This document shows, one piece after another, positions 19,701-42,110 of a DNA stretch of 64,000 nucleotides. Each line of letters opens with the position of its first letter. Positions within the stretch are counted from its first letter, which is position 1. Source of the stretch: Callorhinchus milii (taxonomy: Eukaryota). Position numbers and translations under genes: made by a program. The stretch is from assembly GCF_018977255.1 (NCBI RefSeq), contig NW_024704742.1:65412001-65476000 (forward strand). Reading direction: 5' to 3'. Below the pieces are notes generated by a model, which ran no database searches, was not told where the DNA came from, and saw nothing but the letters and a program-made list of their open reading frames with translations.

Positions 19701-19967
19701 GGGTTGGGGGGTGAAAATCATACTGAAATCTTCTGGATGTCCTTTGAAAGATGATTGCAACCAGCACATTTTAAGTAAAGACTTTTCACCTTTCAGAACG
19801 CTTAAAACTTTCAGGGAAGATTTTCTGTAAACCTTGAAATGAGATAAGTTGAAAGACAGTTTATAGAGAAGCACGCAAAATTTCAGATGTAAGCTTGGAA
19901 TAAATTTTAAAAATTATATCGAGTTCAAGACAGATTAAAAATGTGCCCTGCATTATTTTTCTCCATC

Positions 19968-20107
19968 TCAAACAAACTGCTTAGACTTTTTCGGAGCAGC
20001 TTTGGATGCCAGATCCTTTGCCTTCTCGGTTGCTGCAATCGCAGTTTCTTTTGCTTTCCCTGTAGCCTCTTTTGCCGTTTCAATTAAAGTCCTCGAAGGC
20101 AGATCCC
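19968..20107 (-). CDS. PRELID1: PRELID1-like coding exon 5 (last; LEA-like AKEA/KAKE repeats)
   Basis: CTCAG acceptor; (G)DLPSRTLIETAKEATGKAKETAIAATEKAKDLASKAAPKKSKQFV-TGA; the five exons sum to 651 nt = 216 aa + stop; candidate polyA signal at 19616-19621 (minus). Confidence 0.94.
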
Positions 20108-23079
20108 CTGAGTTGTTTAAAAAAATAATTTACTCACCGAAACATTTGTATTGTCAATAACACACACAATAATAACTAAAGTACATTTCATTTTGCCAAG
20201 TATATACATTTTCCTGGACATGAAGAAACACCTCAAAAAATCTTAGAATTACTCAAAATTAACAATCTAGGAAATAATATCTCAGGATACAACATATAGT
20301 TTGGGACACAAAATGTCAAGCGACTGCCAGGATGGTGGAAGGCAAACTGGATGGATCTTGGTCTTCTTTCATCTAGCAAATTCTTATGTTCTAATCTCAG
20401 GCAAACCCAAACCTCTATCGTCATGAGTTGAAGCAAATTGTTTGAAGCGTATTCCTGTGGGTACCTGGCTGATCAGCAAATGAGATAATGCACTGCCTTT
20501 TAACCCGTAAAATGTCATCTAACGACTACCCAAGCAAATTAAAACAAGATGCACATTTGAAGCTTTTAAATTGATTGTAGAGAAATAAACCTGTGGATAC
20601 AATATCTATTGTAAGTAAACTATTGTTTACTCCTGTAACTCACAGCCAGCCCAAGCTATTACCTGGCTGGTAATAAACCCATCTTAAAACAGATGGTTCC
20701 TGGATAGAATAAATGTTCTTGCCTTGGAAAACTCAAGAGTACAGTGACTCTTCACTGTTATTGGGGCAGCCAAGTTCAGGTGTGATCTCTCATTGCTCTA
20801 ACGTACATTGAAGAGAGGTAAATCATTTACTATTTTTCTCCTCCCCCCCCCCCCCACTCCCCCACTCCCATCTAGGCGAGTGCATTGATCATTACGTCTT
20901 TCCCCTTTGAGACTTCAAGATAAAGACATAGTTTCCACATATTGCATTCACACCTTATACATCGTCCTTCAACTACTTTTCTAAAAACAATATACAGATT
21001 ATATTGCAAATTGCAGACTCCAGTGACATGGGTTTCTGACCTGTTCCCTGAGCCTCTCCAACCATGAAAACCACAAGTGACAATATTTTGCATTTTTTGC
21101 TTGGTTACCATTGGGCATTTGAGAGCACCTATGCAGCACTTTAGAACATATGTCAATAGAGAAGGCTTGCATATTTTGAGGAACGAGTGGGCACGATGGG
21201 CTAATGCTCCTTCTGTGCGATCTTATAAGATCTTGCCGTATGGGAGAAACTCCCTTCTCTTTATGAATAGTGTAATAGGATCTTTAATATTCATCTAAAC
21301 TGGCAAATAAAACTAAGCAAATAAAACTAAGACTAAGCAATGCTCGCTCAGCACTGCACTTGTGTAATCAGCCTAGATTGAGCTCAAGTGCCTACGTGGG
21401 GCATGAAACCAAAATCTTCTGAGCCTGAGGCAAGAGTGTTACCAATAGAACATCCAATTCAAGCTACCGGTGAAAACTGTCAAATTTCACGTAGGTTTTA
21501 AACTCCTTAAAACAGATAGTGTAAATTATCAAATGACATAAAGGTGAATGAATAACAACACAATTAGGGCTACATGATTTATTGTAGTTTACCAGAATAC
21601 CACTCAATGATTGAGCCATAGAATTTTCATTACCCAGAAGTATTTTGCAATGTCATTTTTGCAAGATATGCAACTTGCCCCTGCAGGTTACTGCTGCTTC
21701 CCCAAACAAATTTGGAGATGTTTCCCAGGATACAATAGCATACTATGTAATGCTTAAGGGTTTGTAACTGTGCAAGCTGGGTTGTAAACATGCAGGGAGA
21801 GAATCCCTATAATGTACCTTTTCCAAATGCGTTTATACTTAATGCAATGAATAGGTACAGTCCTTCGCTAAATTAAATGGTGGGCAAAAAAATTATTTAG
21901 GATTTAAAAGTATCATAAAATACTGTTGTTCCACACACAGTATTTCACATCACACAATTACACTAAGTAATGCAGATCACCACTTTATTTAACTGCATCA
22001 AATTTCAGAACCATAAAGACTAGTACTAAATAGCCAAACAGCAACGTTTATATAGTCCTTCACATAGAATAGTACATCAGAATGCTGGTGTGTAGCTTTG
22101 GTGCACAGAAGGGCATAAACTTTAATCATTTTGATCACAAAGTGTGCCTATCTTACATGTTGACTACCTTTTGAGCCTCTATTGTACTCCAGTCTATAAA
22201 ATGGGTCATTGCAAAACAGTCATCTTTCTTCCATTTGACAATGTACACCTCACAAGAACAATCACTACAAATGACAGTAATTATTGTAAAGCATGTTTAA
22301 GGAGCTGATATTATGGGCCTTACAAAAACCCAAGTTTTTTCAGCATGCAGTCAATTAACAAAACGTTAATTTTGTGCTCTCAGGGTCAAAAGCAATGGAA
22401 CGTTCAATTCTGGTCAATACCGTTTGAAAAATCCTATCCATTTGGCACCCATGTGTGGCACTGCATCAGGGCCACAATGTTTATGATCCCAGGGTCAGTG
22501 AGGTCCTGCCTTGCTTTACACTGACCACTGCAATAACATTGGTGAACCATGATGGAGATGATCTGCCCCTCCATCAGGTAAAGGAAGTTTAAGTTTGCTA
22601 TTCTCAGCATAATCAGACAAAATAATAATAATAATCCTTGCATTTGATATAGCACTATAACCTTGTTGAGACGTCTCAAAGCGCGTCCCAAAATATATTG
22701 TAAAGTGGATTGACCTTGTTTTGTGGACGAAATAAGTAAAGCGTTCTGGGATGCTACCCTGTGTGAAGGGCATTATATAAATGCAAGTTGTTGTTGTAGT
22801 AAAGAAAATCAGACTCAGCACAATTGAATATTTTGTACTCAACTCCTCTCCCATTAATATTATTTTAAAAAGATGGATAGGGAGAAATTTTAGATTTACT
22901 CTATTTATGTAACATTTTAAAGCATCCACTTGGTAAATTGCTGAATTTAGTCTCAACCTGGAAGTTTATTTTCTGCTGTTATCAAAAGAACATCAGATCC
23001 AGGTGGAATTTCTCTCTGAGAATTGTGCAATTTTATGCTTCTCACCAAAGGCACATTTCCCAAAGTTTATACTAATTGA

Positions 23080-23274
23080 AACAGAAACAGAGAGAGCTGG
23101 GAACACTCAGCAGGTCAGGCAACATTTATGGAGAAAGGAAAGTGAGTCAACGTTTCAGGTCCAAAACGTTGAATTCACTTTCCTTTCTCCATAGATGCTG
23201 CCTGACCTGCTGAGTGTTCCCAGCTCTCTCTGTTTTTGTTTCAGATTTCCAGCATCTGCAGTATTTCATGTTTT
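23080..23274. mobile_element. Penelope-like element remnant forming a ~165-bp inverted repeat, with 15-bp target-site duplication
   Basis: Arms 23077-23155 / 23165-23243 near-perfectly complementary; GATGCTGCCTGACCTGCTGAGT..CCAGC..TCAGATTTCCAGCATCTGCAGTA motif; flanks GTTTATACTAATTGA / GTTTATATTAATTGA. Confidence 0.75.
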
Positions 23275-23725
23275 GTTTATATTAATTGAGTTGCTGTACT
23301 AGATTATGCTAGTCATCTTCCCCACCGGAGCTCACTACAAGTATTGCACCCTAGGAGTGTAGCCCACCCATGGGAGTGTGGCCGATCAGTTTACAATGGG
23401 CAATAACTCTCGACTCTTGTCTGCACTTCCAGCTATAAAAAGACTGCAGTGAACCTTGGAATCTGGAAAGCTATTCCCCTCATGATTTGACTGACCTACT
23501 TCATTCATTGCTCCTTCACCCCTAGAGGGTTATGCAGTTTCACTGCTCAAAATTTCTGCTTTCTGGCTGCTCATTTTTTAATATTCTTTCTAAAGTATGG
23601 GGTCTTGACAAGCATACCATGCAGGAAACATGGGGGGGGGGGGGGGGAAACAGACATTACATTCATTATTGCTCAGGCAGGCGACCGAAAGGATATGATA
23701 AAGAGAGGTTAAATAATCTACATAC

Positions 23726-23804
23726 CTTGTAAATTAGTAATAACATATTCAAGTCCTTGTGTTGCTTTTATCTGATTTCTTCTAAACCGGGCTAGCCCAA
23801 ATTC
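23726..23804 (-). CDS. PRELID1: PRELID1-like coding exon 4
   Basis: TTTTCCTCAG acceptor, G|GTATGT donor, 79 bp; EFGLARFRRNQIKATQGLEYVITNLQ(G). Confidence 0.94.
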
Positions 23805-24449
23805 CTGAGGAAAAAATGATTTGAGTTTTCAAATATGCATTGAACTGGGGTAATAAATTGATAGGTCATCATTTAACTACAGTAATCAGTGGAATCTTTT
23901 CATTGAACTGAGTAATACAGACAGTAGCCTGGCAGACTACCCTGTGCTCACTTTCCAGTGCTGAATCTTTATAAACAATATTTATAAACAAATGCTGTTT
24001 GTATTTTGGTTTGCTATCATATAGAAGGAGTCCTGCCGTGTGAACGTTAAATTTGCATATGATTAACAGTTCTGGAGGTTTACTCAAAGCTAATCTTCTG
24101 CCATTTTATTTGGATCTTCTTTCATAAAACCCATAATCCCACAGTACCACATAATGCATTTTAAACTGCATTCTTCTCTCAGATCTCTCTAAAAACCTCA
24201 AACTTTTTGCAGACAATTTTTTCAGATTTATTTCCATCAATTTAGAATTTTTTTCAAAATTCCAGTGGTGCTAGGGAATCATTTGATCACCGTTAGTCAT
24301 ACCTACTATTGGTATTGTCTGCCCAAATGTACAATCATAGCACTAAGCACTTATTAGACAGCACTGTAGAATACAGAGACAAATTAATTGCAACATAGGT
24401 GACTGAATAATAATATATTAAATATAATAATAAGCAGGTTAAGTAGCAT

Positions 24450-24795
24450 ATATGGAGAAAGGAAAGTGAGTCAATGTTTCGAGTCCACAACCCTTCGTCA
24501 GAACTGGGGCATGTTGGGAGGAAGAGGCTTTTAAGGACTAAGAACTAACAGAGATGGGGGGGGAGGCAGGGCAAGGAAGACAAAGGAGAAAATGGGGTAG
24601 AGAACAGGGGATGATGGGTTAAAGAGGGGTTAATGATGCAAAAGAAAGTGGGGGGATTGCAATAAAACAGGTAGACCAGAGAGAGGAAACAAAAGTTCTG
24701 ACTCTTTCCTTTCCATAGATGCTACCTGACCTGCTGAGTATTCCCAGCCACTTCTGTTTTCGTTTCAGATTTCCAGCATCTGCAGTATTTTGTGT
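24450..24795. mobile_element. Penelope-like element remnant (inverted terminal segments) carrying a hammerhead-like motif
   Basis: Same terminal sequences as 23080-23274; minus strand has CTGACGA-AGGGTTGTGGACTC-GAAACATT at 24469-24505. Confidence 0.68.
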
Positions 24796-24802
24796 TTTGA
24801 CT

Positions 24803-25156
24803 ATAATAATGATCCTTGCATTTCATATAGTGCATTATCACTTTGTTGAGACACTTCAAAGCACTTCACAGAATATATTGTAAAGTGACTGTATTTTGTA
24901 GGCAAAACAAAGCAGCCAATTGCACATAGCAATGTCCTACAAAAAATTGCAGATTGAGTGATGAAATATGTTAATTTTTGAGGAGGGATTATTACCCCTG
25001 GCAATCGACTAACATCCGGGATCCTAATTACTGCTAGGTAAGCAGAGGCATGTGGAGTAAGGAAACTTGCCTTAGGCTTTGCCCTGCCTGGGAATCAAAC
25101 CTGCGTCCTCTTGTTTGCGAAACGATCGTGCTAATCACTATGCTACAGGACTCCAC
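24803..25156 (-). mobile_element. Older, longer SINE subfamily (also 2933-3200 +, 34305-34460 -, 40535-40700 +)
   Basis: Same tRNA head plus an extra CTCTG.TTACCTAGCAGTAA..GTTAGTCGATTG segment. Confidence 0.8.
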
Positions 25157-25775
25157 AAATGATTAGTTGCATTCATAGAAACTATGTATGTCCTTAATGA
25201 TCAAAGAAATTACGCCACAAAAGGAGGCAGAGACATTAAATCTATGCTGAATGCTTTAGCACCTTTACTTAGTTTTATACTCTAATTCAATGCCCTGCTA
25301 CTTAGCAATAATCTTGTTTATCCTTTCTCTTCAAATAGCTTGATAATTAATTTCACTGCAAATAATTAATAGAAGTGAAATAAATGCAACTTCCCAACAC
25401 AGGAATCAAACTTAGGGCCTTAAGATCTTCAATCCAAGATATCATGGTATGTGATCATGGCATCATATGTTGATGTTCTCGAAGTATGAAGAGAGACATT
25501 TGCAAGCAATCTTAACTGCTTTGAAAGGATCTAAAGTTTACTTTGTAAATCTGACCAGTTATCTCTTGAACCAAGTTATCACACATCAATTTTGTGTTTA
25601 CTAACATATTGTACATTATCAGAACCTCATTTGAAAAGATATGGTTCAACCTAGGTTTTTGAACTAATATTCTTGTCTGCAAAATAGCTGTAATGGAAAC
25701 TACGCAGGGAAAGCTACATTTTCCACCAATCTCTTACTACAACAATGTTTACTAGGCAATGTAATTCGGTGTTAC

Positions 25776-25889
25776 CTGAATTGCTCGTGAAAAGCCAAAT
25801 ACGTTTGATGTGATCCATGCCTCTCGCTGCACTTGGGTCCACGTTTGATTGTCTTGATTTATACTATATACACATTTCTCTTCTACAAT
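25776..25889 (-). CDS. PRELID1: PRELID1-like coding exon 3
   Basis: TTTCAG acceptor, CAG|GTAAC donor, 114 bp; IVEEKCVYSINQDNQTWTQVQREAWITSNVFGFSRAIQ. Confidence 0.94.
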
Positions 25890-25956
25890 CTGAAATTAGT
25901 GAACAGTATCTTAAAACAAATCCATCTCAAAGCGCTTCACAGAATATACTGTAAAT

Positions 25957-26279
25957 AATAATAACAATAATCCTTGCATTTGATATAGCGCTTTTCACGT
26001 CGGGAGGACGTCCCAAAGCACTTCACAGAACACACTGTAAAGTGAATTGACTGTATATTTGTGGGCGAACGCGGCAGCCAATTGCGCACAGCAATGTCCC
26101 ACAAACAGTCGTGGATTGAAAATGACCAATTTATTATTGTTTTTGTTTTTTTGGAGGGATTATTATTAGGCTCTGTGTGGAGTAAGGACACTTGCCCAAG
26201 GTTTCGCCCTCTGTCTGGAATTGAACTCAGGTCTCTCACTTGCAAAGCGAGTGCTCTAACCACTGAGCTACAGGACTCC
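25957..26279 (-). mobile_element. tRNA-derived SINE (tRNA-Ala-like head, Deu domain, L2 tail, (ATT)n), short subfamily
   Basis: GGAGTCCTGTAGCTCAGTGGTTAGAGC A-box, GAGTTCAATTCC B-box, TGC anticodon, GGGACATTGCTGTGCGCAATTGGCTGCCGCGTT core. Confidence 0.92.
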
Positions 26280-27317
26280 TGAAGTGTGTAAAGTGTTTTA
26301 ACTGTGTTTTGTGGGTGTAACACGAACAGCCATGGAGCGAGTGACCAATTTTATTTGGGGGTTTGTTGGCCAGGACACCAGGAGAAACTTTTTATTCTGT
26401 GCTCACTGGATAGGGGGAATGGTGCAGATACATTTGAATCCTATAACTCTTCTAATACTAACGAGTGACATCAGCAACAACCTGACAACCAGAAACTCTG
26501 ACCGGAAATTATATTTATAACACAGGAGTCTGATTTTATGCACCCAAACCACTGAATTACAACCGACTAATGTACTTAATGCAGCACACAGGCAGGTTGA
26601 TCAAGGCCTTCTGAATCTTTTCGGATGTAAACCCTAGACTGTCCAGTGCCTTGGGACTGCCTACCAATGTGCAAGGCATATATACAATATATATTATATA
26701 TAATATGTATAACATATATGCAATTTATTTTTTTTAAAAAAGTTAGAAATGTTTTGGCTTATCGAAGTTGTCTAGTCCCAGTGATCTCTCCGCAAAGTGG
26801 CACCGCATTGGGTTACTCCTGAAATTTTCACCATGGTGATTTCGAAAACTATTGTGCATGAAGAAAGCTCACTTTGTGGTTACAGAAAATATCAGCAAAA
26901 ATTGCTCAACTCCACACACTCTGGGAGCACTGCTGAAAATAACCAGTAGCATATAAATGCAAGACATTGTAATAAGTCATTGTAGAGAAAGAAAAATATT
27001 CCTATGGAATTTTACAAATGTGGTTCTATAAAATACATTTCAGAATAAAAATATTATAATAAACATTCAATGAGTTAATAAATACTGTATTTGCATTTTT
27101 ACAGTATCTTTGATGTAGAAATCCTAAAACGCTTCATAGACACTCCTAGTTTCCTTGGTGGGGGAGGTGAGGGGGAGAAGGGAGAGGTAAGCGGGGTCTC
27201 CTTGGAGCTGAACAGGCTCCAAGGCGACATACTTGGCAACAGAATGTCAGAATCGAGCCAGCCCTCTGTGGCGGTCTCGGTAGTCCGGTTCCTGATCCCA
27301 GGCAGGTTCACATTATT

Positions 27318-27497
27318 CCAGGGCACTGATGATGACAGCACAGTCAGCCTGGCTCATCGGTAGGACCTGGAAGGGCAGACCAGTCACTGGGGGCAGGGAG
27401 TCATCCCACTCAGCTCCTGTTAATCACACAGGCCAAAGCCCTAATGGGTAGGGTGGTCCTAGCTGGACAAGCAGCGGGAAAGTTTGTAGACAGAGCC
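27318..27497 (+). repeat. Unclassified interspersed repeat, second copy at 63842-64000
   Basis: CCAGGGCACTG.TGATGACAGCACAGTCAG ... GGGTAGG.TGGTCCTAGCTGGACAAGCAG.GGGAAAG shared. Confidence 0.8.
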
Positions 27498-27575
27498 TTT
27501 TGGATACCACACTGAAAAAAAATGATCTCATTCAATGAATAGAGAGTATCCTTTGTAGGAAAAGGCAGAGCTTAC

Positions 27576-27801
27576 CATAAGACGAGTGTGGTTCACATTC
27601 CATGTTAAAGTGGCAAATGTTTTATCTTGAAGATCGACGACAGAATCCTCAATCACAAAGACCGAGCGTGCCAGGTTAGATGGGAAGATCATCTCTGCCC
27701 AGCGAGGCAGGCGGTTAGTCTTTGTGAAAAGACGTCTAGATATCAGTTTACCATCAGATGTCACTTCACGGTAAACAACATCTTCGGTTAATACGTGTTT
27801 A
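27576..27801 (-). CDS. PRELID1: PRELID1-like coding exon 2 (PRELI/MSF1 domain)
   Basis: TTTTCAG acceptor, ATG|GTAAG donor, 226 bp; KHVLTEDVVYREVTSDGKLISRRLFTKTNRLPRWAEMIFPSNLARSVFVIEDSVVDLQDKTFATLTWNVNHTRLM. Confidence 0.95.
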
Positions 27802-28744
27802 CTGAAAACGAGAAGAGCGAATTTAAGAGCCAAGCTCACTTCCCGAAAAAGAACATTTCCAATTACACAGAACATATTTAAATATTGCTCTATCAGTGGC
27901 TGAAAAAAGCAGATTGAGAATAAAAATGGGTTTAGTATGATTCTACAAAAGGAAACCTTTATCCTCACAAAATTAAAACAAATTCAGAGTAAAATGAAGA
28001 AAAGACGATAACAGCTTCCAAGACAAGTTCAAACAGAAGTTAGTGAAACAGGCAGAGGAGTAACAAACAATATACAACTCCAGCAGCGTCAGCTATTCCA
28101 TCAAACATGCCTTCTCAAACAGTGCCTGCCATGAGCCACCACAATAATAATCCTTGCAATTGATGTAGCGCCTTATCACATCGTTAAGACGTCTCAAAGA
28201 ACTTCATAGAATATACTGTAAAATGGATTGACTGTGTATTTTGTGGGCAGTGTCCCACAAATAGTCATGGATCGAGTGACCAATTTTTAATTTTGGGGAA
28301 GGGGAGGGATAATTGCCCCAGAAAGTGAGCTTCCAGCAGAATGGACACCACCAGTTTCTGTCTTCTGCAGACCTCTCAGCTACTGTTCCTTAAATAATTC
28401 AAAAAAATATTAAAAGTAACTAATGATAAAATCCCCAGAAATTATATGGAAAAATAGTATGTAATCACTAAAGTACAGATTAAACCACATTTGCTAAAGT
28501 ACGGTGTTACACAGCATTATTCCCTTCCAATTAGAGCAACGTGGAGTTCACATATCATTTTTAGTCCAAAAATGGACACAGTTCAAATAGGTGGTAAAAG
28601 GGAACAAAGCCCTTATACATGGTTTAAAGTACCATCACGAGATTTCAGTGTCTATTGAAGTCAAATCATTACTGGCACAGCCCAGTTAGTTCTCCTTGAT
28701 TTACCCATCTTGAAAGCACGGAAAGGGTCTTGTTACGTTTTGCA

Positions 28745-29180: not shown

Positions 29181-29333
29181 TCAAACGCTCAACTATGTCC
29201 AAATAAGTGGTAAACTCACCAAAACAGTTGAAGAAAAACAGCAGAATTTCAAAATGTAAATACTTCACTGTGGGTGCAAATATTTTTTTAAATAAGACAA
29301 TGGTCACGCAATGCTGCCAAAGCACAGACTCAC

Positions 29334-29425
29334 CTGAAAGGGTTTGGATATCTTTGCCAAAATGCAATCACTACCTGGTCCCATGAGCTCTTGAGAGTGG
29401 ACAGATCAAAGAAATACTTTACCAT
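29334..29425 (-). CDS. PRELID1: PRELID1-like coding exon 1 (exon incl. UTR 29334-29479)
   Basis: ATG at 29425; MVKYFFDLSTLKSSWDQVVIAFWQRYPNPF-AG|GTGAGT; 92 bp; matches PRELID1 MVKYF..SSWDQV..AFWQRYPNPY. Confidence 0.93.
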
Positions 29426-32400
29426 AGCTCCCACCTCAGCCTTTCAGGCTATTGATTCAGGAATGAATTACAATATCACCTAGAAAATGAATGAACAAAA
29501 TAAGCATACAATCAAATAATACATAAGGTTGTCTGTTCACTGTGAAGAGGTCCACAGTCCATATTCACTGATATACGCAATACATTTAACACTCCCTAGA
29601 GAAAAATAAAACATTTCTGCCCTTGTCTAGTTAATCTTATACCATATTCAGACAAGGATCACTTCTTGTTGTTGGGAGNAAAAAAGCCTCTAATAATCTC
29701 TACAATAGACAAAAGGTGTTTTCAGTGACTTCTGTTTTTATGTCAGATTTCCAGTATCTGCAACACTTTGCCTTCTTTTTATATAATCTGTTGTGTCGCT
29801 GGGTAACTCCCTACCCTGGTGGCACACCAGCAATTAGGAACTTGCACCAATCAATCTGTGCACCACTCGATATATGACTTCTATTCTATAATGAAGTTAC
29901 ATGCAGTCAGCCTTGCGAATTACCCAAGATGTGCGTTTATTAGACCCGATGGACAAATGTGCTGTACAGCATTTTGGGGAACTTTCTTTTGCTATGAGTG
30001 CAGATTTAGAGATATCAGGTGCCCACACACTCAGGACAAGATCACAAGATTGGGTTGGACGAAGAAGACCCTTCTGCCCATTTGATCTAATCGAAAGCAG
30101 GGTTAAAGAGGAGGGTCTTGAGACGGGCTTTGAAGGAGATAAGGGAAGGGGTGAGGCAGGGGGCTCTGGCATGGAGTTTCAGAGGATGGTGCCAGAAAGG
30201 TTGAAGGCCTGACCGCCGATCATGGAGCAGGTGGGGTGGGGAGCTGAGGGCAGGTTGGTAACATTAATTAATGTGCAAGTCACTAAATTGCATTCATTAA
30301 ATCAAACTGTAGCAACATTGTGGTGCTCATATGTGGGGAAAAAAAAGTTACACAATATTGAGCCGCTATTGATATACTTTTCTGCTGCAGTTGAACAGCC
30401 ATGAGCAAAAAGAGCCTCCATTTCTGGCAGTATACTTCGACGCAGCATCTGGAGGGCTGGTAACGGTGCCCACTCCACATCATTCAAATCAGACCAGGAA
30501 AAAAAAAGCTCTATTCTGGCATTCTGTGCATGGACAAACAGATGCCAGTGGTTTATATAATAAACTATTAAAGAGCCGGCCGGCCACACCATCAATTTTT
30601 AAATGTTGCTCTATTCAAAGTTCAGAGTTGAGTGTTTTTTGGGGGTAGAGATTAAGGGAGAGAAGAGCCCAGTATTCTTACCCCCCTCCTCTGGTATTAA
30701 CACTATAATATTTGTGAGCCATCTCCTCCACAGTTGGTCAGCAATGGGGCCTCAGTGAGGCTCAGATTACACAAGACATTTGGTGTCGATCTTCAGTGTG
30801 GAAGTACAGTATTAATGTAGCATTAGTTCATCCCCTCAAATCATGCCTACTTACACTACCAACATCAGTACTTCACCCGAGCTAAAAAGCTCTCTCCAGA
30901 CACATTTGCAAAGGTCAACATTTATAACTGCACTGCTGGATTTTTCAAAGTTCAAAGAAGAATATGAAAAGAGTATGGGGGGGGGGGGGGGAGAAGAGGG
31001 GAGGGAGTGAGCAGGAGAGTGGGATTAGACTAGATGGCTCATGTGGAGAAAAGAACACCAGTGCAGATTTAATGGGTCTGTTTCTGTATTGTAACATTAG
31101 TAAATTCAATTGGTTTTATTACAAATGATAAATTAAGTCTCTTGTTTAATGAGTGAATTGAGAGCTGGTAGAAACAAAAACAGCATTTGTAAAATGCTAT
31201 CATTCATGCAAGATTTCCTGACATACAGGTTTTTACTCTGACCTTTCTAATTCAGGCCACGAGTTAGAAGTGGACAAGTTAGAAGTGGACAAATTCAAAG
31301 CAGCTAGCTAGGTATGCGTTGGGCAAAGCAAAGCTATTCATTTCACCCAGTTTTAGGCTAAATTCTTGACAAAGATTCAAAGCAGCAACTCCCTCTGAAA
31401 ACTGGAGTCATGGAAAAGGAAGGCTTCAAAGAGGTTACAGTTGCTGAACAGGAATTCCGGACTTGCTCCACAACAGCATCAGCAATAAAAAGCTTTTTGA
31501 AGGGAGTTGGCAGGCAAGTCACAGTAACTCTGCACAGAGAATGCAGACCCAGCTGTACCATGCAAACAACAAAAGAGAAAAGGGCAGATTCCTGATTCGG
31601 GGCTTGGCAACAAGACAGGAATGAGATGAAAATAGTGTAAGTGGGTGTAATACAATGGACAAGCTATACTGAATAAATGGGCTTTTCACAGGTGCATGCC
31701 ATGGACTGGCACACTGTACCTTCCCGCATAAATAGCTCAAGCCCAGATTTTCTCTGCTGGTTATGAAGATCCTATATTATTATTATTATTATTATTTAAT
31801 GAGTTTGGGGCTGAGACCACTGCATAAAATGGTCTGTCCACAAATGGGAACTTTCTCGGGACAGTTAGGGTAGGAATTGGGAAAATGTAGTGCAAACCAG
31901 TTATGAAATTCAAGTTAATCAACATATTGCAGCAGACTATATAGAGCTAATTGCCATTTCCAACCTCAACTATACTGGATGCTCCCAAAACTTGATGCGA
32001 AATGTGCAAAATGCTTCCTTTTTTTTAAACCAATATCTTTTCCCTCAATAAGGGCAAATATTCTACCAAAATATGATTACAACCCCACAAATTTTAAAAC
32101 CAATACATCAACAGATTTTGCCTCCAAATTATCTCTCTCATCTGTGTACTGGAGCACTTTTATTATTTTACTCAGCTGGACCTGCTTGGGCTAACAACCA
32201 TTTCCCTTTCTTAGCCACAAAAGGGACTAGCATATTGTTTGGTGTTAAAGCTCAGGAAATGATTCTGCATAGTAACTCACAGATTGACGTCATCTCAAAA
32301 TATAAATAGAAAATATTTCATTAACAGCAGCCTATCAAGTCATTTCTGGGAAAACTTCACCAAATGAAATAACACTCGCCTTGAAGGTTTTTTGTGAAGC

Positions 32401-34612
32401 TGGTTCATACCCTGTGGTTATTTGACACAAATCTTGTGTGACAGACACATTTATTAAACTAGTTTGGTTTAATAAACCAAATTGATTTTAAATGTAATCT
32501 AGATTTTCATTAAATCCATTGTGATCTAAATAACACATATTATATTTCTATGAATGTGTTCTTTCTTCCTTTTGATTCTCTTTCCCTCATCTACATTTTG
32601 TTTTTGAGGAGCAAAATGGCCTATTTTCTGCACTCAATGTCATCATCCAGCACTCCCAGAACTTAAAGCTGACAGGAACACACACTGATCGCACCGTATG
32701 ACATCCCATTTCCAACAACACCACTAACCCCATTTCCAACAACACCACTAAACAACTTGGCACTTGTAAAGTGCCTTAAACATAAAATATCTCAAAAGAT
32801 TTTATGACAGAATTGATATGAAATGGGAGTGAATTTTTAAAATATATACAGGCAACGTCAAAGACGGGTTTTAAAGAGTTTTAAAGTCAGGGGTGGAAGG
32901 CACAGGGTGAAGGGGCAGGTTGAGCTTATGAAGGGTGAACAAGAGAGTCCAAAGAGGAGTGCTGGAGAAATCTAGTATTCAGGAAAGCATGGGTGCAAGT
33001 TCTCGCTGAGGAGAGGGTGAGGTAGGGACATGAAGAGGCATAAGAACATAAGAATTTGCTAGGCAGAAGAACACCAAGGTCCATCCAGTTCGCCTTCCAC
33101 CATCCTGGCAATCACATGACACGTGTCCTAAACTATACACTGTATCCTGAGATATTATTTCCTAACAGGAATCTATCTAATTTGCTCTGGAGAGAAATCA
33201 CCACTTTCTGCGTCCACAGTCTGCCTGGGTAGCCTGTTCTATACTCACTTACTGAAGTAGTGTTTCCGCAGATTTGTTCTGAATTTACCCTCCTTCAATT
33301 GCAGGCTGTGTCCTCTGGTTCTACTTTCATTACAAGATAAAACAGCTTATCATGATCTACGTTATCTATTCCCTTTAGAATCTTAAAGACTGTAATCATA
33401 TGGCCCCTCAACCTGATCATATCACCACTCAACCTTTCATCTCCAGAACCTTCCAAGCAAAGTTCTGAAGACGGAGGACTACTCGCAACAGAGTGGAGAG
33501 TTTGTGAACCTGTTTCACATAAGACCATTAAAGGCAGCAGACAAAATAGCCTTTCATGTAATCTGTTTACGGTGGATTTTCACTGAGGTCCCACACTTGA
33601 CAGATTAGTGTATTAACCGACCATTACCATGTATTCTTTATTATTTATTATTTTAACCTTTCATCCCTTAATGGATAGGATGCTCTTTAGACCCTTCTTT
33701 TATGTAACATAGGTAACAAGCACCACCATTTCAACTTGTACTAAAAGATAATTTTCCCATCTGTATGTGGTACATATAATTTATTAGATTGCTATAAAAT
33801 CTACAGTTTTATACACAATTTTGTGACAAGCAAGTCTGGTGATGTACCTTACAATTGTGCTTTTGCTGGTTGATATAACAGTAGTAGTACAACCAATACA
33901 TCAGATTTTACTTATTGTACTTGCTTTTGATATTATGTAGCTTAAGAATTTTGAACTAACCCATTGTATAGTAATTTGTTTAGTAGATATAACTCCTTGA
34001 AAATATAGCTAAATATAAACTACACATTATTTACAAAAATGAAAGCACTGTAAGGAGCAAGTTACAGCACAATGTTCATTTACTGAATGCATTGGTTAAC
34101 TAGCAAATTAGCCAACAACCTTGCATAGTTAACATGCTCTTTCTAATTATTAAATGCAATTTAATGCATGTGGGAGTGAACTCAAAAGAATAAGGAAATT
34201 CACCACAGACTGGAAGTGATCCTGAAAAAAATTCTTAGTAAATATAATTTCCCCCCACCCCCCAAACAAATTGTTCAATAGTCACATAGATAGTGGAGTC
34301 CTGGAGTATATTAGAGAAAAGTGATCTGCCAATCGACTAACAACTGGGTTCCTATTTACTGGCAAGTAAACAGAGGCACTTGGAGTAAGGAAACTTACCT
34401 AAGGCTTTTGGCCTACTCAGGAATGGAACCCGGTTCCTCTTGTTTGCGAGGCTAACCAATACGGGGAACAGGCCTCTACAAGATTTGAGATGATTATCAG
34501 TTCATCAATTGGTGCTGATTTCAATCTCAGACCCATTGGAAAGGTGGCAGGACAGTATTCTGATCCTCTGATTCACCCAATTGAAATTGCTCCCTTCCCA
34601 GGAGGGTTGCCT

Positions 34613-34894
34613 AATAATAATAATCCTTGCATTTGATATAGCGCTTTTCACGTCGGGAGGACGTCCCAAAGCGCTTCACAGGGTGAACGCGGCAGCCAAT
34701 TGCGCACAGCAATGTCCCACAAACAGTCGTAGATTGAAAATGACCAATTTATTATTGTTTTTTTGTTTTGGAGGGATTATTATTAGGCGTGTGGAGTAAG
34801 GAAACTTGTCCAAGGTTTCGCCCTCTGCCTGGAATTGAACTCAGGTCTCTCACTTGCAAAACGAGTGCTCTAACCACTGAGCTACAGGACTCCA
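34613..34894 (-). mobile_element. Same SINE, internally deleted copy
   Basis: Near-identical to the 25957-26279 copy but lacks the CACAAATATACAGTCAATTCACTTTAC segment. Confidence 0.9.
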
Positions 34895-37207
34895 CTAAGC
34901 AAAGATACATTTGTTTTCAAAATAAAACAAAAACAGAGAATAAAATAAAACACTTGTAATGCAAAAATCTGGAGAACTACTACTTACTATTGGCTACATA
35001 ATATTAAAGAAAGAAAAAAAAATTCAATGGGGGAGTGGAGTGTCCTTTCACCAGGGCTGTTGCCTTGGAGCTGAGCCAATGCAGGGAGCTGTGTCTGCAA
35101 ATTGCAGCTCCTTTGCCGACAGAACCAGTTTCCCCATTGGCATGTGATAGTATATGCCCCAAGAAAACATGTACTGTACCTCTAAAGAGGCAAGGACTAC
35201 AATTTGAATGCTTATTTGAAGAAATATATGTTAAAACCATTACCCAATGGTCCCCCCTACAACAAAGCTACCTGGACTGTCCAAGCACTCTGAGACACAC
35301 TTTTTAAATCACAAGCTCCAGAGTAATATTTCTTGTCTTTACTCAAGTATCCTTACTCTTTTCCGAATGTAAAAGAGCATGCTCGACATCCGAGGCTGAA
35401 ATTTTACCTAGCCTGCAAGACCATTTTATCTTTACATTTAAAAATCGCATAGAATTGTGGAAAAATTCTTAATTCAGTCTTAATTTAAATACTGTGTTTT
35501 CACAGATCATAAAAATAAAGAGCTTCAAATACAAGACTGAATTTGAGAATTTGCCCTAGATGAGATAAAATTGTGGACCTCAGGTATTAAGATTCTGCTA
35601 ATGCTGCTCTGCAGATGGAAAATGAAGCTGGTTTGGGCTGTTATGCACGGAATTTCCTTCCATTAGCAAAGAAGTGTTGGCTATTTGTGCCTGAACTCAC
35701 TATGTGAGCATTGATCCACATCCTAACTTTAATGTTATTCCATTTATTTTCAGCAATTTGTCCTAGTTACTCTTTCAAAACTTTTTATAGTTCCCTATTC
35801 TATAATTGGTGCTAGTATTTTGTTCCACATCTCTATCATCCTTATATTAAAAAAAATTAAACAACAAACTGCATTCATACAGCACTTTTCACGTCGGGAG
35901 CATGTCCCAAGGATTCAGGAGGGAAGTGAAGGCGCAGTCAAAGAGGAAGGTCTTGAGACCTTCAATTTCAAATTCAATTTCTTGTGCACAAATTGGCTGC
36001 CTCGTTGGCCCACAAAACGTATAGTCACTGCACAGTACATCCTGTGAAGCCCTTTTGGACGTCCCCCGATATGAAAGGAGCTGCATCAAAGGTGAGGATT
36101 GCACGATCTCTTGTGCTCAAGAGTAACCAATTTAATTGAACTTTCATAGTTACATGGAAACAGAATGTATAATTGCTATAAAAATGCTTTATTCTGATTT
36201 AATTAACTTTAAGATCAAAGTATAAAAGGTGTTTTTATAATATTATTTACTGCCAGAATAGCAGAATACAAAAACAACAAAAAAATACACCAGTATGTCA
36301 CAGTATACTGTATTTATACAGGATTTAGGCTATGATGCCTACAGTACAAAGAGCAATTTGGTGTCCTGACAGATGAGGACAGCCTTTGTGTGGCCCCAGC
36401 TTTGCAGATGAACAGCTGCTGTTGACAGCTTTTGTGTCCTTGCATATGCGGTTACTGTGATGCTGTTAAGCCATGAAGTGCTATACAGTACACAACAACT
36501 TCATGGATTATTCAGTACCTGTACAGAAACAAAACTACCTACAATTATGTTTTTAAAGTCAGCCAGGTGTCTTGACACAGGTGGAAAACCACTGTCATGT
36601 TTAAGAGCCTCCAAATCAAATACTCAGGATTCCCCATTTGTCTGGTATGGACAGACACTCTCCCCAGAGGGAACCGCCCTGATTACCAAATCCCAAAGAG
36701 TTTAGGTGCAGGTTGTTGTTGGGAATTACTGCAGTTTAATCAGCGAAAATCATGCAGCTTGTGTGCAGATGATTGACTCAATTCTAATATGCTATTGCCA
36801 AGAATGTCACCGTGGAACAAACTCAGTTCCCCTCTCTCATAACTCACCTGGTGCTTTAAGAGTATAAATGCAACATTAGAATTGTATTCACAATGTTGGA
36901 CATCATGCCACAAAATAGACAGGTACAAAAAACAATTGCAATGTGGTTGTTTTAAATATAAAGGGCATGAACTTTAAAGATGATCAGATTTACTGAAGCT
37001 TTACAAGCTGGAAAGACTTAAGCTTTGTAGGCTAGAAAAAAAAGTAGCTTAAGATATAGACCATTAATGGTAATAAAGAAGAACAAAAACTCGGGTTTAT
37101 ACAGTATTTCAAAGTAAGACTAGAAAATACAAATGTATATTAAACACATTTAGAATCAGGAAAATACTTCTTTACTCAGAGGGATAACGATTTTGAGCAA
37201 GTTATAG

Positions 37208-38970
37208 TCAACAATAACAACTTGCATTTATATAGTGCCCCTTACACAGGGTAGCATCCCAGAGCCCTTAGCAGGGACGGAGCACGACTCCGAGCTGGGG
37301 GAAATGACCCTAGGCACAGTCAAAAAAGCAAGATCTTCAGGCACGATCTGAAGATGGGGAAGTAAGGGGCAAGGCGGAAGGATAGAGGAAGAGTGTTCCA
37401 GAGTTTCGGGACGTAGTGCCCGAAAGCCCAGCCATCGATGATGAAACGGAGGGCATGAGGGATGTGCAGGAGGCCGGAGCCAGTCGAGTGGAGGCAGTGG
37501 GTTATGGAGTAAGCAGGTTGGAGAGGTAGGGAAGTGCCAGGGCATAAAGGGATTTGAAAATGAGTGGGAGGATCTTGAAATCGATCTGTTCGGCAATAGG
37601 GAGCCAGTGTAGTATGGCTAGAAATAGTGTGACAGGAGTATGGAGTTTAGTAATAATAATAATAATAATAATCCTTGCATTTGATATAGCGCTTTTCACG
37701 TCAGGAGGACGTCCCAAAGCGCTTCACAGAACACACTGTAAAGTGAATTGACTGTATATTTGTGGGCAAACGCGGCAGCCAATAGCGCACAGCAATGTCC
37801 CACAAACAGTCGTGGATTGAAAATGACCAATTTATTATTGTTTTTTTTGGAGGGATTATTATTAGGCTCTGTGTGGAGTAAGGAAACTTGCCCAAGGTTT
37901 CGCCCTCTGCCTGGAATTGAACTCAGGTCTCTCGCTTGCAAAGCGAGTGCTCTAACCACTGAGCTACAGGACTCCACGTCCTATGGGCGAGTATGGGCGA
38001 GTATGCGGGCGGTGGAGTTTTGGGATCAGTTGGATCTTGTGGATGGTGGAGCTGGGGAAACTGGAGAGGAGGGCATTTGAAAAGTCGAGTCGGGAGGTAA
38101 CAAACGCATGGACGAGTGTTCGGCTGTGTCTGGGATAAGGTACTGTCGGAGGCGGGCACTATGGTGGAGATGGAGGAAAGGGGTCCTGGTCAGGGACTGG
38201 ATGTGGGGAAGGAAGGACAGCTGTTGGTTGAACCCGATGTCTAAGTTACGCATTGGTTTGGTGAGTCTGAGAGCTAAGCTGGGGAGGTTGAAGAAGTCAT
38301 ATTCGCAGAATAGAAGATGTTGACGGGAGCCAAGGAGTATTGCTTACATCTTGTCGACATTTAGTTGCAAGAAATTTGCCCTCATCCAGGCCTTAATCTT
38401 TGCCAGACAAGACGAGAGAACATTGGCGGACCTGGATTTGCAGTTGGAAGAGAAGTAAATTTGTGCGTCACCTGCACTCATGTGGAAGTTTACCCCGTAC
38501 CTACGGATGACATCGCTGAGAGGGAGCATATAGATGAGGAAGAGGGGGCCAAGGATGGAGCCTTGTGTACATCTCAGGTGATTGGGTGGGGGCGGGAGGA
38601 GAAACTGTTTGAAGATACAAAGTGAAGGCGGTTTGTTAGACAGGCTAGTGCAGTGCCACTAAGGTGGATGAGGGAGGAGAGGCGGTGGAGGCGGATGGTG
38701 TCTTCAACTGTGTTGAACGCGGCAGAGAGATCCAGGAGGTTGAGGAGGCAGAGGGAACCCTGGTCACAGAGAGAGATGTCGTTTGTGACCTTGACTGTGA
38801 GCTATGGGCAGAGCAGAAACCAGACTGGAGGGACTCAAGGAGGGAGTTAAGGGAGAGGTGTGAGCAAACCTGCTTAGCAACAACGCATTCCAGAGGTTTG
38901 GCAAGGAAGGGCGGGTTGGAAATGGGACGGTAATTTGTAAGGTTGGAGGGGTTCAGGATGGGTTTTTTGA
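37208..38970 (-). mobile_element. L2-clade LINE fragment interrupted by a young SINE
   Basis: [51 protein letters not shown]2 3' tail at ~37210. Confidence 0.9.
37651..37977 (-). mobile_element. Same SINE, full length, inserted into L2
   Basis: Near-identical to other copies; long (ATT)n tail. Confidence 0.93.
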
Positions 38971-39474
38971 GTGACGACAGTGGTCAAATAGAGCTCAAAA
39001 CATTGGAGCTATTCAAAATCTAATTAGATTACTGGTTGGGAAAGTTGATGTATTGGAAGGTACCTTAAAGCAGATGGGGGTTCCCAGACCTTTCATAAAT
39101 TCATATAAAAAAGACTTACAAAATAAATTTCCACGCAGATTTGGAACTCTGAGTAGTTTGGTTTGGAAAACAAAGGTTTTCTTGTGTATCAACTCAACCA
39201 ACTGACCAAAACAATAATAATACTTGCATTTGATATAGCATTTCAGAGGAATATGTGAAGGTCATGCTGTCTGCTATTCACTGTATTCACCTGCTTGATC
39301 TGTTCTATGTGCTTGTATTTAGTGAGTCACCTCACTTTCTTCTTCAGCAATTCCCTCAATTTAAGTCTAATTATCACAATGCTGCATAATATTGTAACGT
39401 ATTAATCCTTATATTTTATATAGCACTTAGAATGTCAAAGGCTTAAAAGTGCTTTACAGGAAATTGCTATCAAC

Positions 39475-39975
39475 GACAACAACTTGCATTTATATAGCGC
39501 CCAGTGTTACAGAACACTTCACAGTGGTGGAGTCTGACAACGAGTCAGGAGGTGACCATAGTCATAGTCAAATAGGAAGGTCTTCAGGTGCGACCTGAAG
39601 TTGGGGAAGGAAGGGGCTGGCGGAGGGCAAGGTGAAGAGTGTTCCAGAGTTTCGGGGCACAGTGGCTGAAGGTGCGGCAATCAATGGTGGACATGAGGGA
39701 CATGCAGAAGGCCAGAGCCAGTAGAGCAGAGTCAGCGGGTTGTGGGTTAAGCAGGTTGAAGGCGTAGGGAGGTGCCAGGAATGAAGGGATTTGAAAAACA
39801 GGTGTGAGGATCTTGAAATCACTCCATTCAGTGATAGGGAGCCAGTGGAGCCTGGCTAGAACCGGTGTGATGGGGGTTTAGTACGGGTGAGTATTCGGGA
39901 GGCAGGGTTTTGGATCAGCTGGATCCTGTGCATGGTGTGGAGCTGGGAGATCGGCAAAGAGGACATTTGAGAAGT
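39475..39975 (-). mobile_element. L2 LINE 3' fragment
   Basis: Homologous to 37208-37640; L2 tail ACAACAACTTGCATTTATATAGCGCC. Confidence 0.8.
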
Positions 39976-40499
39976 GGTGACGAGCAGATGGGGCCTCGGT
40001 TTAATGTCTCATCTGAAGGCAGCACGTCTGACAGTGCAAAACTCCCCCCAGCACTCCCCTGGAGTGTCAGCCGACTTCGATACTGTTGAGTTCAAAGTCC
40101 AAAAGTAGGGTTTGAACGCACAACTTTCCGACTTGACTCAGAGGAGAGAGTTCTAACCAACTGAGGCCAGGGCGATATAGTATACAGAGTTAATAATGTC
40201 CACAATCATCCTTGCATTTGACATAGCGCCTTATCACGTTGTCTAAAAGTCTCAGTGAAAGTACTTCACGGGATATACTGTAAAGAGGAGGGATGGTGTA
40301 TTTTGTGGACGAAACGCAGCAACCAGTTTGCGCGCAGCAATGTCCCACAAGCAGCCCAAGGATGGAGTGATTAACCAATTTTATTTGGGTGGGGGGGGAA
40401 GGGGGGTTGAGAATAGATAAATAGTTGGCCAGGACACCTGGAGAAGGGCACTGAGAAGGTGAACGAGGAGAAAGTACAGTCCTCTGCGGAACGAACGAT

Positions 40500-41048
40500 C
40501 TGTTCCTCTCCTCCTTTTAAAGAGCAGCTCCTTTGTGGAGTCTTGTAGCGTACTGGTTGCAGGCGCTCACCTCCCGGGTCCGATTCCAGGGCACGGGCGA
40601 AACCTCGGGCAGGTTTCCTTACCCCACGCGCCCGTTGACCCAGCGGCTCGGTGCGAACCTGCCGCGCCAGTTGACCGGCGGATGGCTTTTCCGGGGGCAA
40701 TTAATGGCTCGGGGACGCCGCTCGGCGTGGAGGGCGCTATACAAGTGCAAGTCGCCGTTAAAAGGTGCCGTCGCCGAACCCAGGACGGTTTGTGGGGGAC
40801 ACCGCCGGTGCGCGAGGGGCGCACCCACACAGAAAAAAAACCCCCACTGTCCGCTGTCGTCCGCGAAGCGCTTGGAGACGTCTTGGAAGACATGATAAGG
40901 CGCTCTATCACAGGGGCAGTGCTGCTGCTGTCTGGAGGTCAGGGCGCCACACGGTTGACCTACAGACGAGTGACACCGCCTCCCAACTGAACTCAGAGAG
41001 GGAGAGAGAAAAAAAATTTAAAACTCACCAAAGCCATAGCCGCTCGGC

Positions 41049-41086
<38 letters not shown>

Positions 41087-42110
41087 CTCGCTGTCCCGTC
41101 CCCCCTCCCACCAGCGCCGGGAATGGATTCCCACTTCCCTTTCCTAACCGTCTTGAAGCCGCGAGCTGTCGCCATGCGTTTTAAATAGGAGGGGCGGCGG
41201 CGAGTCCCAGTTCTCTCCTCCTCCTCCTCCCACCGCCGCCGCCGCCGCTGTGAGTCACACCATCCGCCGCTCCGGCCATCCGGGGGCCGCCGGAAATCAA
41301 ACACGCGTTTGTAGCCCAAAGTCCAGCGGTGACTCGCCCCAAAAATAGCCCCAATATGATGGGGTCCCGATGCCTCTACGCGAAGTGGCTGTGGAGTTTT
41401 GGGGGTTTGTGCTCTTTTCTTTTTGTTGAAACGGTCGTAAGAAAAGGCATTGGGGGAGGAGCGAGAAGACGACGTTTTAGAGGGTACGGTTTTATTGTGT
41501 TTTTGACCCCCACCCGCCGGGTCAGAAAAGAAAGCGCCCAAAGTGGGCGTGAAAGCCGCCCAATCCGGCAACGTTGGGTCACCAGCTCTTCGCGGCCGTT
41601 AGGGGGCGCGCTGTGGAGACTCCGGTCCTCCGAGGTGACGTCTCAAATCACGTGTGTGTGTGTGTGTGTGTGTGGTGGGGGGGGAGGGGACGGGGACCGG
41701 CGGATGAGGAAGTGCCCTCTTGTCCAGAACGCCGCTGAACTTGTCGTTGGCGGCGCTTCACTATTTGAAATGAGCCGTCGGTTGGTGGGAGAATAAGAGA
41801 GGGAACCGCTCGCGCGTGTGCGCGGCCGCAGCTGTGACCGCGACACCGACAGCGTCAGGACCCAGAGGAGCTGTTAGTGACCGCGCCTCGGGCTGTCTGT
41901 GGGGAGAGGAGAGGGTCGGCACCAGGTACTCACTCACTCACTCGCTCAGTCACTGCTCCCATTTCATTTTCACTGCGGACCTTTTTTATTTGTTTTATTT
42001 GGCTCTTCAGCGGAGGCTCTGTGACCTGTCGCGTGCGGCTCGGGGCCGCCGACCACTCCACACGGCGCCGTTTTTATTTCCTCTTAAATAAGTGGCAGTT
42101 AACGGTCTGA
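40500..42110. promoter_or_regulatory. CpG island / bidirectional promoter for PRELID1-like (-) and HAUS3/POLN (+)
   Basis: Only CpG-dense stretch of this size in the window; CCAAT 41560-41564, TGACGT 41636-41641, CACGTG 41649-41654, CHR-like TTTGAA 41764-41769; candidate + strand donor CAG|GTACT at 41925. Confidence 0.8.
41029..41300 (-). other. PRELID1: Putative upstream first exon of the PRELID1-like gene
   Basis: Strong donor TTG|GTGAGT at 41029/41028 within the CpG island; the ATG exon has its own acceptor (TTTTCTAG before 29479), so an upstream exon is needed; 5' end uncertain. Confidence 0.6.

Follow-up and report, generated by a model that had tools for sequence, protein, structure and literature searches.

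The PRELID1-like gene and its neighbors

The window analyzed here, a stretch of 64,000 nucleotides from the chimaera Callorhinchus milii, belongs to a locus with the order FYVE gene, MXD4, PRELID1-like gene, HAUS3, and PolA gene. Read on the minus strand, the PRELID1-like gene has a coding sequence of 651 nt that yields 216 amino acids without an internal stop, and all four introns have GT..AG borders. Coding exon 1 (29334..29425, 92 nt; ATG at 29425-29423) was placed by its open reading frame, GT donor, and upstream AG, and the 5′ UTR occupies the same exon up to an acceptor near 29479. Exon 2 (27576..27801, 226 nt; PRELI match of 69 bits) encodes residues 32-106, including H33, R54, K58, and the omega loop. 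Exon 3 (25776..25889, 114 nt) encodes residues 107-144, including E110, and is joined in contigs to exon 4 (23726..23804, 79 nt), which encodes residues 145-171 in helix α3, with R150, N154, the clade-typical Q155, and K157. Exon 5 (19968..20107, 140 nt including the stop codon), recognized from the reading frame and contigs, encodes an Ala/Lys/Glu-rich tail. The spliced contigs also cover the 3′ UTR (19400..19967), at least as far as the compared stretch extends, and AATAAA occurs there at 19616 (minus strand). With Pfam PRELI (PF04707; cut-off 27) the protein reaches 166.5 bits, which identifies it as a PRELI/MSF1 member; it is identical to database record P0003, 'prelid1a [Callorhinchus milii]'. 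Reading frame, splice borders, and Pfam score thus bear out an earlier note's description of an intact five-exon PRELI-domain gene with canonical splice sites.

Transcript support consists of intron-skipping contigs and covers exons 3-5 only; the 'RNA' label on the runs is a guess, and no run is recorded as RNA. In three of four public runs (X1, X4, and X5, from two studies), exons 3+4+5 or 4+5 form consecutive parts of one record with the introns skipped, and in run X2 exons 3 and 5 share a record with a gap of 79 letters, the length of exon 4. Further upstream, an unstranded CpG island (40600..42200; GC 0.57-0.63, CpG o/e 0.88-1.06) may serve as a promoter shared with HAUS3, and could contain a non-coding first exon with a candidate donor at 41028 on the minus strand. 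It is on this candidate exon, in the island at ~40.6-42.2 kb, that the right end of 41300 previously given for the gene depends.

The left neighbor is MXD4, whose last three coding exons lie at 3646-3760, 6128-6296, and 6865-7019 (plus strand), with the earlier exons upstream of the window. Its exon matches 'max dimerization protein 4 [C. milii]' at 100% identity; the names MXD1, MXI1, and MXD3 do not occur among the best 120 of its 363 matches. The two genes are indeed oriented tail to tail, as had been reported, but their stop codons are ~13 kb apart (7019 vs. 19968). On the other side, HAUS3 is encoded by four exons (46462..53249, plus strand; PF14932, E 1.6e-64). An exon at 56630..56765 (plus strand; no Pfam match) is probably the first coding exon of POLN, which we take it to be from its resemblance; DNA_pol_A exons lie further along the same strand (C1:65.59-65.61 Mb).

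Two PRELID1 clades in jawed vertebrates

Phylogenetic trees divide jawed-vertebrate PRELID1 into two clades, A and B. Clade A comprises the window gene and copies from shark, coelacanth, bichir, sturgeon, and gar, as well as the teleost copies called 'prelid1b'; both clades are found in shark, coelacanth, sturgeon, gar, and teleosts. The split has an SH-aLRT of 99 in the unrooted tree. A more careful tree, rooted with invertebrate-type outgroups, supports vertebrates at 100/100, clade A at 94/75, and clade B at 90/61, and in all 200 bootstrap trees the A/B label changes a single time; the outgroup branches are long, neither clade is starred, and root support (94/75) is moderate. Across 224 rows (95 from clade A and 129 from clade B), all 19 proteins named 1b fall in A, while all 35 teleost 1a proteins and all 44 tetrapod proteins fall in B. 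The window gene is the ortholog of teleost prelid1b: it groups with the proteins named 1b, and species order is kept within the clade. Among the matches listed (best 120 of 148 and of 524), no clade-A copy appears in the 44 tetrapod rows, no lungfish PRELID1 appears at all, and the only bichir copy belongs to clade A. No cyclostome sequence was identified in the tree or among the representatives, of which 10 of 150 were looked up.

It is a different chimaera gene that groups with tetrapod PRELID1 and teleost prelid1a. A short contig of the assembly (C1510) carries another PRELID1 that is closer to the human protein, with exons 3 and 4 equal in length to those of the window gene (114 and 79 nt) and 36 of 64 residues identical over both. 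Exons 1-2 of this copy were found nowhere else in the assembly, leaving the window gene as its sole full-length PRELID1. The earlier note had proposed looking for another PRELID1 beside MXD3; the second PRELID1 exists, but MXD3 was not found in the assembly. Two MXD exon queries each returned three loci (C1, C28, and C7), in a lossy search that does not prove loss; the C28 and C7 loci are presumably MXD1 and MXI1, which they resemble. The best MXD profile hit on C1510 has an E of 1.2 (control loci, 1e-7 to 1e-16), and the 7.3 kb beyond the stop codon of its PRELID1 are without an MXD exon. With MXD3 not found and no MXD exon in that interval, a mirror-image MXD3 block is not seen in this genome. 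The window gene is nonetheless not the only PRELID1 present, and its neighbor is MXD4 rather than MXD3; neither of the outcomes that the note named as refuting its reading is observed.

Origin of the MXD4-linked copy

In Tetraodon, a second Prelid1 has been described in linkage with MXD4; its region is paralogous to that of MXD3 and Prelid1, and an origin by genome duplication was proposed (McFerrin and Atchley 2011, PMC3177325). The two regions share pairs of MXD, ZFYVE28-like, and PRELID1 genes, and ADD paralogs are likewise linked to the MXD family (PMC3177325). In our comparison of 13 taxa, the record lengths for MXD4 and the clade-A protein agree in five and disagree in the other eight (seven ostariophysan teleosts and Albula); in Aldrovandia the two have adjacent locus tags (AAFF_G00274100 and G00274110). 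The tree and AU tests, with moderate root support, date the duplication as older than the split between cartilaginous and bony fishes and younger than the invertebrate outgroups.

Trees, AU tests, and neighboring genes support an ancient MXD4-linked paralog that arose before sharks and bony fishes diverged and was not seen in tetrapods. We consider it highly probable that the window gene is an intact clade-A PRELID1 paralog that is likely an ohnolog of human PRELID1 from early-vertebrate genome duplication, that tetrapods likely lost, and that is predicted to be a TRIAP1-bound carrier of phosphatidic acid (PA). An ancestral block of FYVE gene, MXD, and PRELID1 would have doubled, giving MXD4 with the window gene and MXD3 with PRELID1. 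The human regions 4p16 and 5q35 are a pair from the second round of jawed-vertebrate genome duplication (2R), and for this reason 2R is the most likely event, a conclusion we hold with reasonable though lesser confidence. The idea that the MXD/PRELID1 pair predates the duplication and that this lineage kept one copy is likely correct in its first part; the copy is not special to the chimaera lineage, since it is the ortholog of teleost prelid1b and is kept by most of the jawed fishes sampled.

It is conceivable, if quite improbable, that the pair arose instead by segmental duplication of a small region in the stem lineage of jawed vertebrates. Timing by itself cannot separate the two mechanisms, and the MXD3 side of the block was not found in this genome; against this, the pairing of three gene families across both regions and the MXD-ADD linkage (PMC3177325), together with the unbroken FYVE-MXD4-HAUS3-PolA order here, argue for duplication on a larger scale. 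Far less credible still is that the window gene is the true ortholog of human PRELID1, moved beside MXD4, or a duplicate specific to cartilaginous fishes or teleosts. The NCBI name of the protein (XP_042199025.1, 'PRELI domain containing 1a') and its standing as the sole full-length copy would fit a translocated ortholog, but AU tests, under the model used, reject that grouping (p 0.0025) as well as a single chondrichthyan clade (p 0.0077) and a single teleost clade (p 1.5e-63), and tetrapods group with the C1510 gene instead.

Origin by whole-genome duplication, the preferred reading, is in its core already in print for Tetraodon (PMC3177325). This was the sole relevant paper in our literature search, in which 'prelid1a' and 'prelid1b' returned none, a blank that may reflect coverage. 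PRELID1, MXD3, and MXD4 are not in the supplement of an ohnolog database paper, the web database of which may list the pair.

Predicted function and divergence

The window protein matches the human PRELID1 structure at E 1.7e-80, compared with 6e-21 for Ups1 and 2e-16 for PRELID3B, placing it in the PRELID1/Ups1 subfamily. It has the residues R25, H33, K58, E110 (E108 equivalent), and K157 (K155 equivalent), whose roles in PA head-group binding or specificity are described in PMC6408443, PMC4532887, and PMC7447767. K58 and the E108 equivalent are the main specificity residues tested, and K58 limits transfer of phosphatidylserine (PS) (PMC6408443). K58 and H33 occur in all 95 clade-A rows and E110 in 87, the other eight being gaps. 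The acyl-chain contacts of Ups1 (PMC4532887) align to V78, V80, M106, and V108, which are the same in human. The chimaera genome contains one TRIAP1-family locus. Because the known PA residues are kept, the window protein is likely a second PA carrier, as judged from its sequence; it would be imported into the intermembrane space with TRIAP1, dock on the outer membrane through its omega loop, bind PA through R25, H33, and K58, and, at the inner membrane, release it to be made into cardiolipin. No report of lipid transfer by a clade-A protein was found in the literature searched.

Exon 4 had been described as diverged. As a whole it is not unusually so, with 15/27 residues identical to mammal compared with 22/38 in exon 3; between the clades, however, divergence does peak at residues 152-171 within it (scan-corrected permutation p 0.042). 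Q155 occurs in 88/95 clade-A rows and 0/129 clade-B rows, F30 in 28/34 A rows with Y30 in 22/22 B rows, and between-clade differences at 155, 162, and 169 are spaced at seven residues. M68 lies in the omega loop of all seven cartilaginous clade-A rows. Omega-loop charge or hydropathy was rejected as a clade marker, with no clear difference between clades (charge 1.59 and 1.68), and hydrophobicity is even higher in the shark clade-B loop.

The clade-wide presence of Q155 in helix 3 may point to divergence, and it is possible that the same ancient paralog has changed its job: early fixation of Q155 and F30, with other substitutions in helix α3 and loop L2, could have altered lipid selectivity or membrane docking, such that jawed fishes would have two biochemically different PRELID1 carriers, of which the MXD4-linked one, handling other lipids or another membrane, was lost by tetrapods. 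The clade-typical residues, their spacing, and the 152-171 peak are consistent with such a change, as is the contact of helix α3 and loop L2 with the membrane in Ups1 simulations (PMC7447767); M68, too, sits in a loop whose hydrophobicity affects the choice between PA and PS (PMC6408443). Yet K58, the E108 equivalent, and the acyl-chain contacts are unchanged, loop charge is alike in the clades with the shark clade-B loop more hydrophobic still, a search of three papers found no passage about position 155 or its Ups1 equivalent, and age alone predicts a few fixed differences. We therefore regard a changed job as unlikely. Most likely the window gene and the other copy do much the same work, or what sets them apart is expression and not the lipid carried.

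Implications and comparison with known PRELI proteins

A second PRELID1 beside MXD4 is real and largely known. It is common for ohnologs to be retained in fishes but lost in tetrapods, and with the MXD4-Prelid1 link already in print the result will seem tidy rather than surprising to a specialist. It does correct the history of the family: the teleost genome duplication did not produce prelid1a and prelid1b, which are an older pair; human PRELID1 is the member of that pair that survived; and chimaera and bichir records called 'prelid1a' are 1b-type. In fish models of PRELID1/TRIAP1 and cardiolipin, a second carrier could mask knock-outs, and Q155, F30, and M68 offer a natural variant set for lipid-selectivity rules. 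Bichirs may have lost the clade-B copy; if so, and if the two carriers do differ, bichir and human 'PRELID1' would be hidden paralogs, and a comparison of zebrafish prelid1a and prelid1b knock-outs would be one between ohnologs 450 million years old, not between teleost duplicates.

The closest known counterparts of the window gene are teleost prelid1b (Danio rerio NP_001018515.1) and its gar equivalent (W5M2R6), which belong to the same clade and share Q155; the clade-A copies of teleosts are labeled '1b' in databases, whereas the chimaera and bichir members are labeled '1a'. Those genes are from bony fishes and the window gene from a cartilaginous fish, which places the pair before the shark/bony-fish split. 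The second Prelid1 of Tetraodon is MXD4-linked like the window gene (PMC3177325), whereas in cyprinids and milkfish 1b and mxd4 are on records of unequal length.

Human PRELID1, a TRIAP1-bound PA carrier (PDB 6I3V, 6I3Y), is a paralog and not an ortholog. It aligns with the window protein without gaps over residues 1-172 and is identical at R25, Y26, H33, R54, K58, R61, P63, W65, E110, R150, N154, and K157, but has Y, R, V, and F where the window protein has F30, M68, Q155, and L162. PRELID1 overlaps MXD3 (PMC3177325), whereas the window gene lies beside MXD4 and HAUS3 without overlap of coding ends. The PS carriers PRELID3A and PRELID3B (SLMO1/2; yeast Ups2) share PF04707 and likely the TRIAP1 partner, but are far more distant (E 2e-16 to 7e-14); separate loci on C2 and C18 of this assembly are presumably of this type. 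Unlike these PS carriers, the window protein retains K58, the residue that limits PS transfer (PMC6408443).

Gene structure and genomic neighborhood

The PRELID1-like gene between MXD4 and HAUS3 (window position G000:C1:65,412,001-65,476,000, that is, contig C1 of genome assembly G000) is real. The earlier note had described an intact PRELI-domain reading frame of 216 amino acids, and this description is confirmed: five minus-strand coding exons (29425-29334, 27801-27576, 25889-25776, 23804-23726, and 20107-19968) are separated by four introns, all GT..AG, and records from sequencing runs skip introns. The protein scores 166.5 bits against the Pfam PRELI profile and is identical in sequence to database protein P0003 (XP_042199025.1, 'PRELI domain containing 1a [Callorhinchus milii]'). 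Splicing was checked with contigs from four runs in two studies, which may be RNA, mapped over 19400-26600; in this region, spanning exons 3-5, introns are absent from the contigs at the predicted boundaries. Single records in runs X1 and X4 join exons 3, 4, and 5 directly, a record in X5 joins exons 4 and 5, and one in X2 carries exons 3 and 5 with 79 letters between them. A CpG island at 40.6-42.2 kb presumably contains the first exon.

The left neighbor is MXD4 and not MXD3: it is 100% identical to a record of that name, and the names MXD1, MXI1, and MXD3 are absent from the best 120 of its 363 matches. A FYVE-domain exon lies ~44 kb ahead of the first MXD4 exon, and HAUS3, with DNA polymerase A exons beyond it, lies to the right of the PRELID1 gene. 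This FYVE-MXD4-HAUS3-PolA order agrees with what we take to be the human order, ZFYVE28-MXD4-HAUS3-POLN. The previously proposed tail-to-tail arrangement holds as far as convergent orientation is concerned, but the coding ends do not overlap, because the two stop codons are ~13 kb apart. The true MXD4 N-terminal exons (L040:4425-9309, an assembly stretch upstream of the window) match bamboo-shark protein P0372; the older C. milii model P0370 begins with translated intron sequence. Long simple-repeat arrays, CA/GA-rich and GT/CT-rich, occupy 13300-16400 and 42150-43160 and yield spurious reading frames of 350-1150 aa, and a short stretch of a HAUS3 intron (50480-50640) looks like a decayed HSP70-type fragment.

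Two ancient PRELID1 clades

Jawed-vertebrate PRELID1 splits in two in a 57-row tree (SH-aLRT 99). Clade A unites the window gene with six sharks and rays, one coelacanth copy, bichir, sturgeon and paddlefish, gar, and teleost 1b, a breadth that leaves retention specific to one lineage, as the earlier note suggested, unsupported. Clade B contains a second chimaera gene (contig C1510), a catshark copy, the other coelacanth, sturgeon, and gar copies, bowfin, teleost 1a, and tetrapods. A mixture-model tree of 37 rows hand-picked from the matches, with ten distant outgroups including sponge and flea, places the root between the two clades, each of which is moderately supported (A 94/75, B 90/61); a single label change was recovered in 200/200 bootstrap trees. 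Three alternative topologies were rejected on the 37-row set: teleost 1a and 1b as one clade (AU p 1.5e-63), all cartilaginous copies as one clade (AU p 0.0077), and the window type as the tetrapod PRELID1 ortholog (AU p 0.0025).

A FastTree of all 224 matches listed, labeled by source names (rows lacking a name carry no label) and with lungfish not placed, puts 44/44 tetrapod rows and 35/35 teleost '1a' rows in B, and 19/19 '1b' rows in A. Clade A is thus likely absent from tetrapods as judged from these sequences, though not proven to be so because the matches are the best 120 of 148 and the best 120 of 524. Bichir proteins P0014, P0499, and P0500 (Polypterus, Erpetoichthys), named 'prelid1a', fall in clade A; no bichir clade-B protein occurs among the matches listed, and reciprocal loss of PRELID1 copies between bichirs and tetrapods is possible. 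Eels (Conger, Anguilla) carry, besides prelid1a, two clade-A copies on different chromosomes (P0025, P0063, P0029, P0054), probably the true teleost-duplication pair.

MXD4 and a clade-A protein lie on records of equal length, compared by eye and indicating a shared chromosome rather than adjacency, in five of the 13 taxa compared. These are Hemitrygon, Polyodon, Conger, Aldrovandia (where the locus tags are adjacent), and, at the level of clusters, Alosa. The lengths differ in the other eight (six cyprinids, milkfish, and Albula), which could reflect either small scaffolds or reciprocal loss following the teleost duplication. Separation of prelid1b (P0024, P0058) from mxd4 (P0428, P0423) on records of differing length in milkfish and Pseudorasbora suggests that copies were reciprocally lost once the teleost genome had duplicated.

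A second PRELID1 in the chimaera genome

A PRELI profile search of G000 gave 12 matches. The window gene is not the sole PRELID1, since exons 3-5 of a second, human-type gene lie at L032:1543-4482 on C1510, an unplaced 11.8-kb contig; searching the assembly did not recover exons 1-2 of this gene. Exons 3 and 4 equal those of the window gene in length, with 36/64 residues identical across both. Position 146 is Cys, as in catshark copy P0226, where Phe is usual. A 5'-truncated, intronless, frameshifted processed pseudogene of this gene (L087, G000:C3:83,567,481-83,567,640, minus strand) retains the exon 4-5 junction without an intron, at 85% identity across 322 bases; the C1510 gene therefore shows a sign of transcription.

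The earlier proposal to look for another PRELID1 beside MXD3 was borne out for PRELID1 but not for its neighbor: two queries of G000 gave just three MXD loci (C1, C28, and C7), MXD3 not among them, and an MXD profile search had no match on C1510. MXD3 may have been lost in this chimaera or may be missing from the assembly. About 5.5 kb past the C1510 PRELID1, in the expected place of MXD3, is an Ig V-set-like exon, apparently in two frames (L033:8132-8487, plus strand, about 9980-10335 on C1510; Pfam E 0.002, below cut-off). Other distant PRELI-domain loci occur at G000:C16:10.909 Mb, C20:8.877 Mb, and C13:2.155 Mb; two of them resemble the SEC14L1/SEC14L5 type, and one may be PRELID2.

Predicted function and divergence

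Residues 1-172 of human PRELID1 and the window protein form an ungapped alignment (E 1.7e-80); the match to PRELID3 is far poorer. Papers on PRELID1 and its yeast counterpart Ups1 describe residues that bind or select phosphatidic acid (PA) (PMC6408443, PMC4532887, PMC7447767). The window protein keeps all four phosphate residues (R25, Y26, H33, and K58), both entrance residues (R61 and K157), E110, and the acyl-chain positions; K58 and H33 occur in 95/95 clade-A rows of the 224-row set from the matches listed. It would likely shuttle PA across the intermembrane space and feed cardiolipin synthesis, with binding, localization, and transfer all predicted. The genome has one TRIAP1-family locus, and TRIAP1, the partner of PRELID1, would therefore serve both paralogs.

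Sub-functionalization, which the earlier note had linked to a diverged exon 4, finds mixed evidence. Identity to a mammal is 15/27 in exon 4 and 22/38 in exon 3, and omega-loop charge is alike in both clades; on the other side, between-clade divergence across six lineage-matched pairs reaches its maximum over residues 152-171 (p 0.042, corrected for the scan), and Q155 is found in 88/95 A rows versus 0/129 B rows among the matches listed. Positions 155, 162, and 169 differ between clades at helical spacing, and most clade-A rows have F30 instead of Y30. Position 155 is not mentioned in the portions of the Ups1/PRELID1 literature consulted. A real biochemical difference between the two PRELID1 types seems unlikely.

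Probable origin by genome duplication

We take 4p16 and 5q35 to be a pair from 2R, the second early vertebrate genome duplication, and on that basis the PRELID1 pair probably arose in 2R. The earlier note's reading of the window gene as a genome-duplication ohnolog is supported, and its main inference is already in McFerrin and Atchley (2011; PMC3177325). That paper links Mxd3 to Prelid1, and Mxd4 both to ZFYVE28 and, in Tetraodon, to 'the second copy of Prelid1', and treats the Mxd3 and Mxd4 regions as paralogous products of the two vertebrate genome duplications; 2R is described, in PMC7269912, as a jawed-vertebrate event preceding the shark/bony-fish split. UniProt already names a gar clade-A protein 'PRELI domain containing 1b'. 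Our literature search found no paper with this tree, cartilaginous or coelacanth members, or a tetrapod loss; a web database (PMC13450315) may list the pair. Beyond the published account, this study shows how far the clade extends, with members in teleosts as well as in cartilaginous fishes; it also rejects the teleost duplication as the source of prelid1a/1b and points to the misnaming of chimaera and bichir records.
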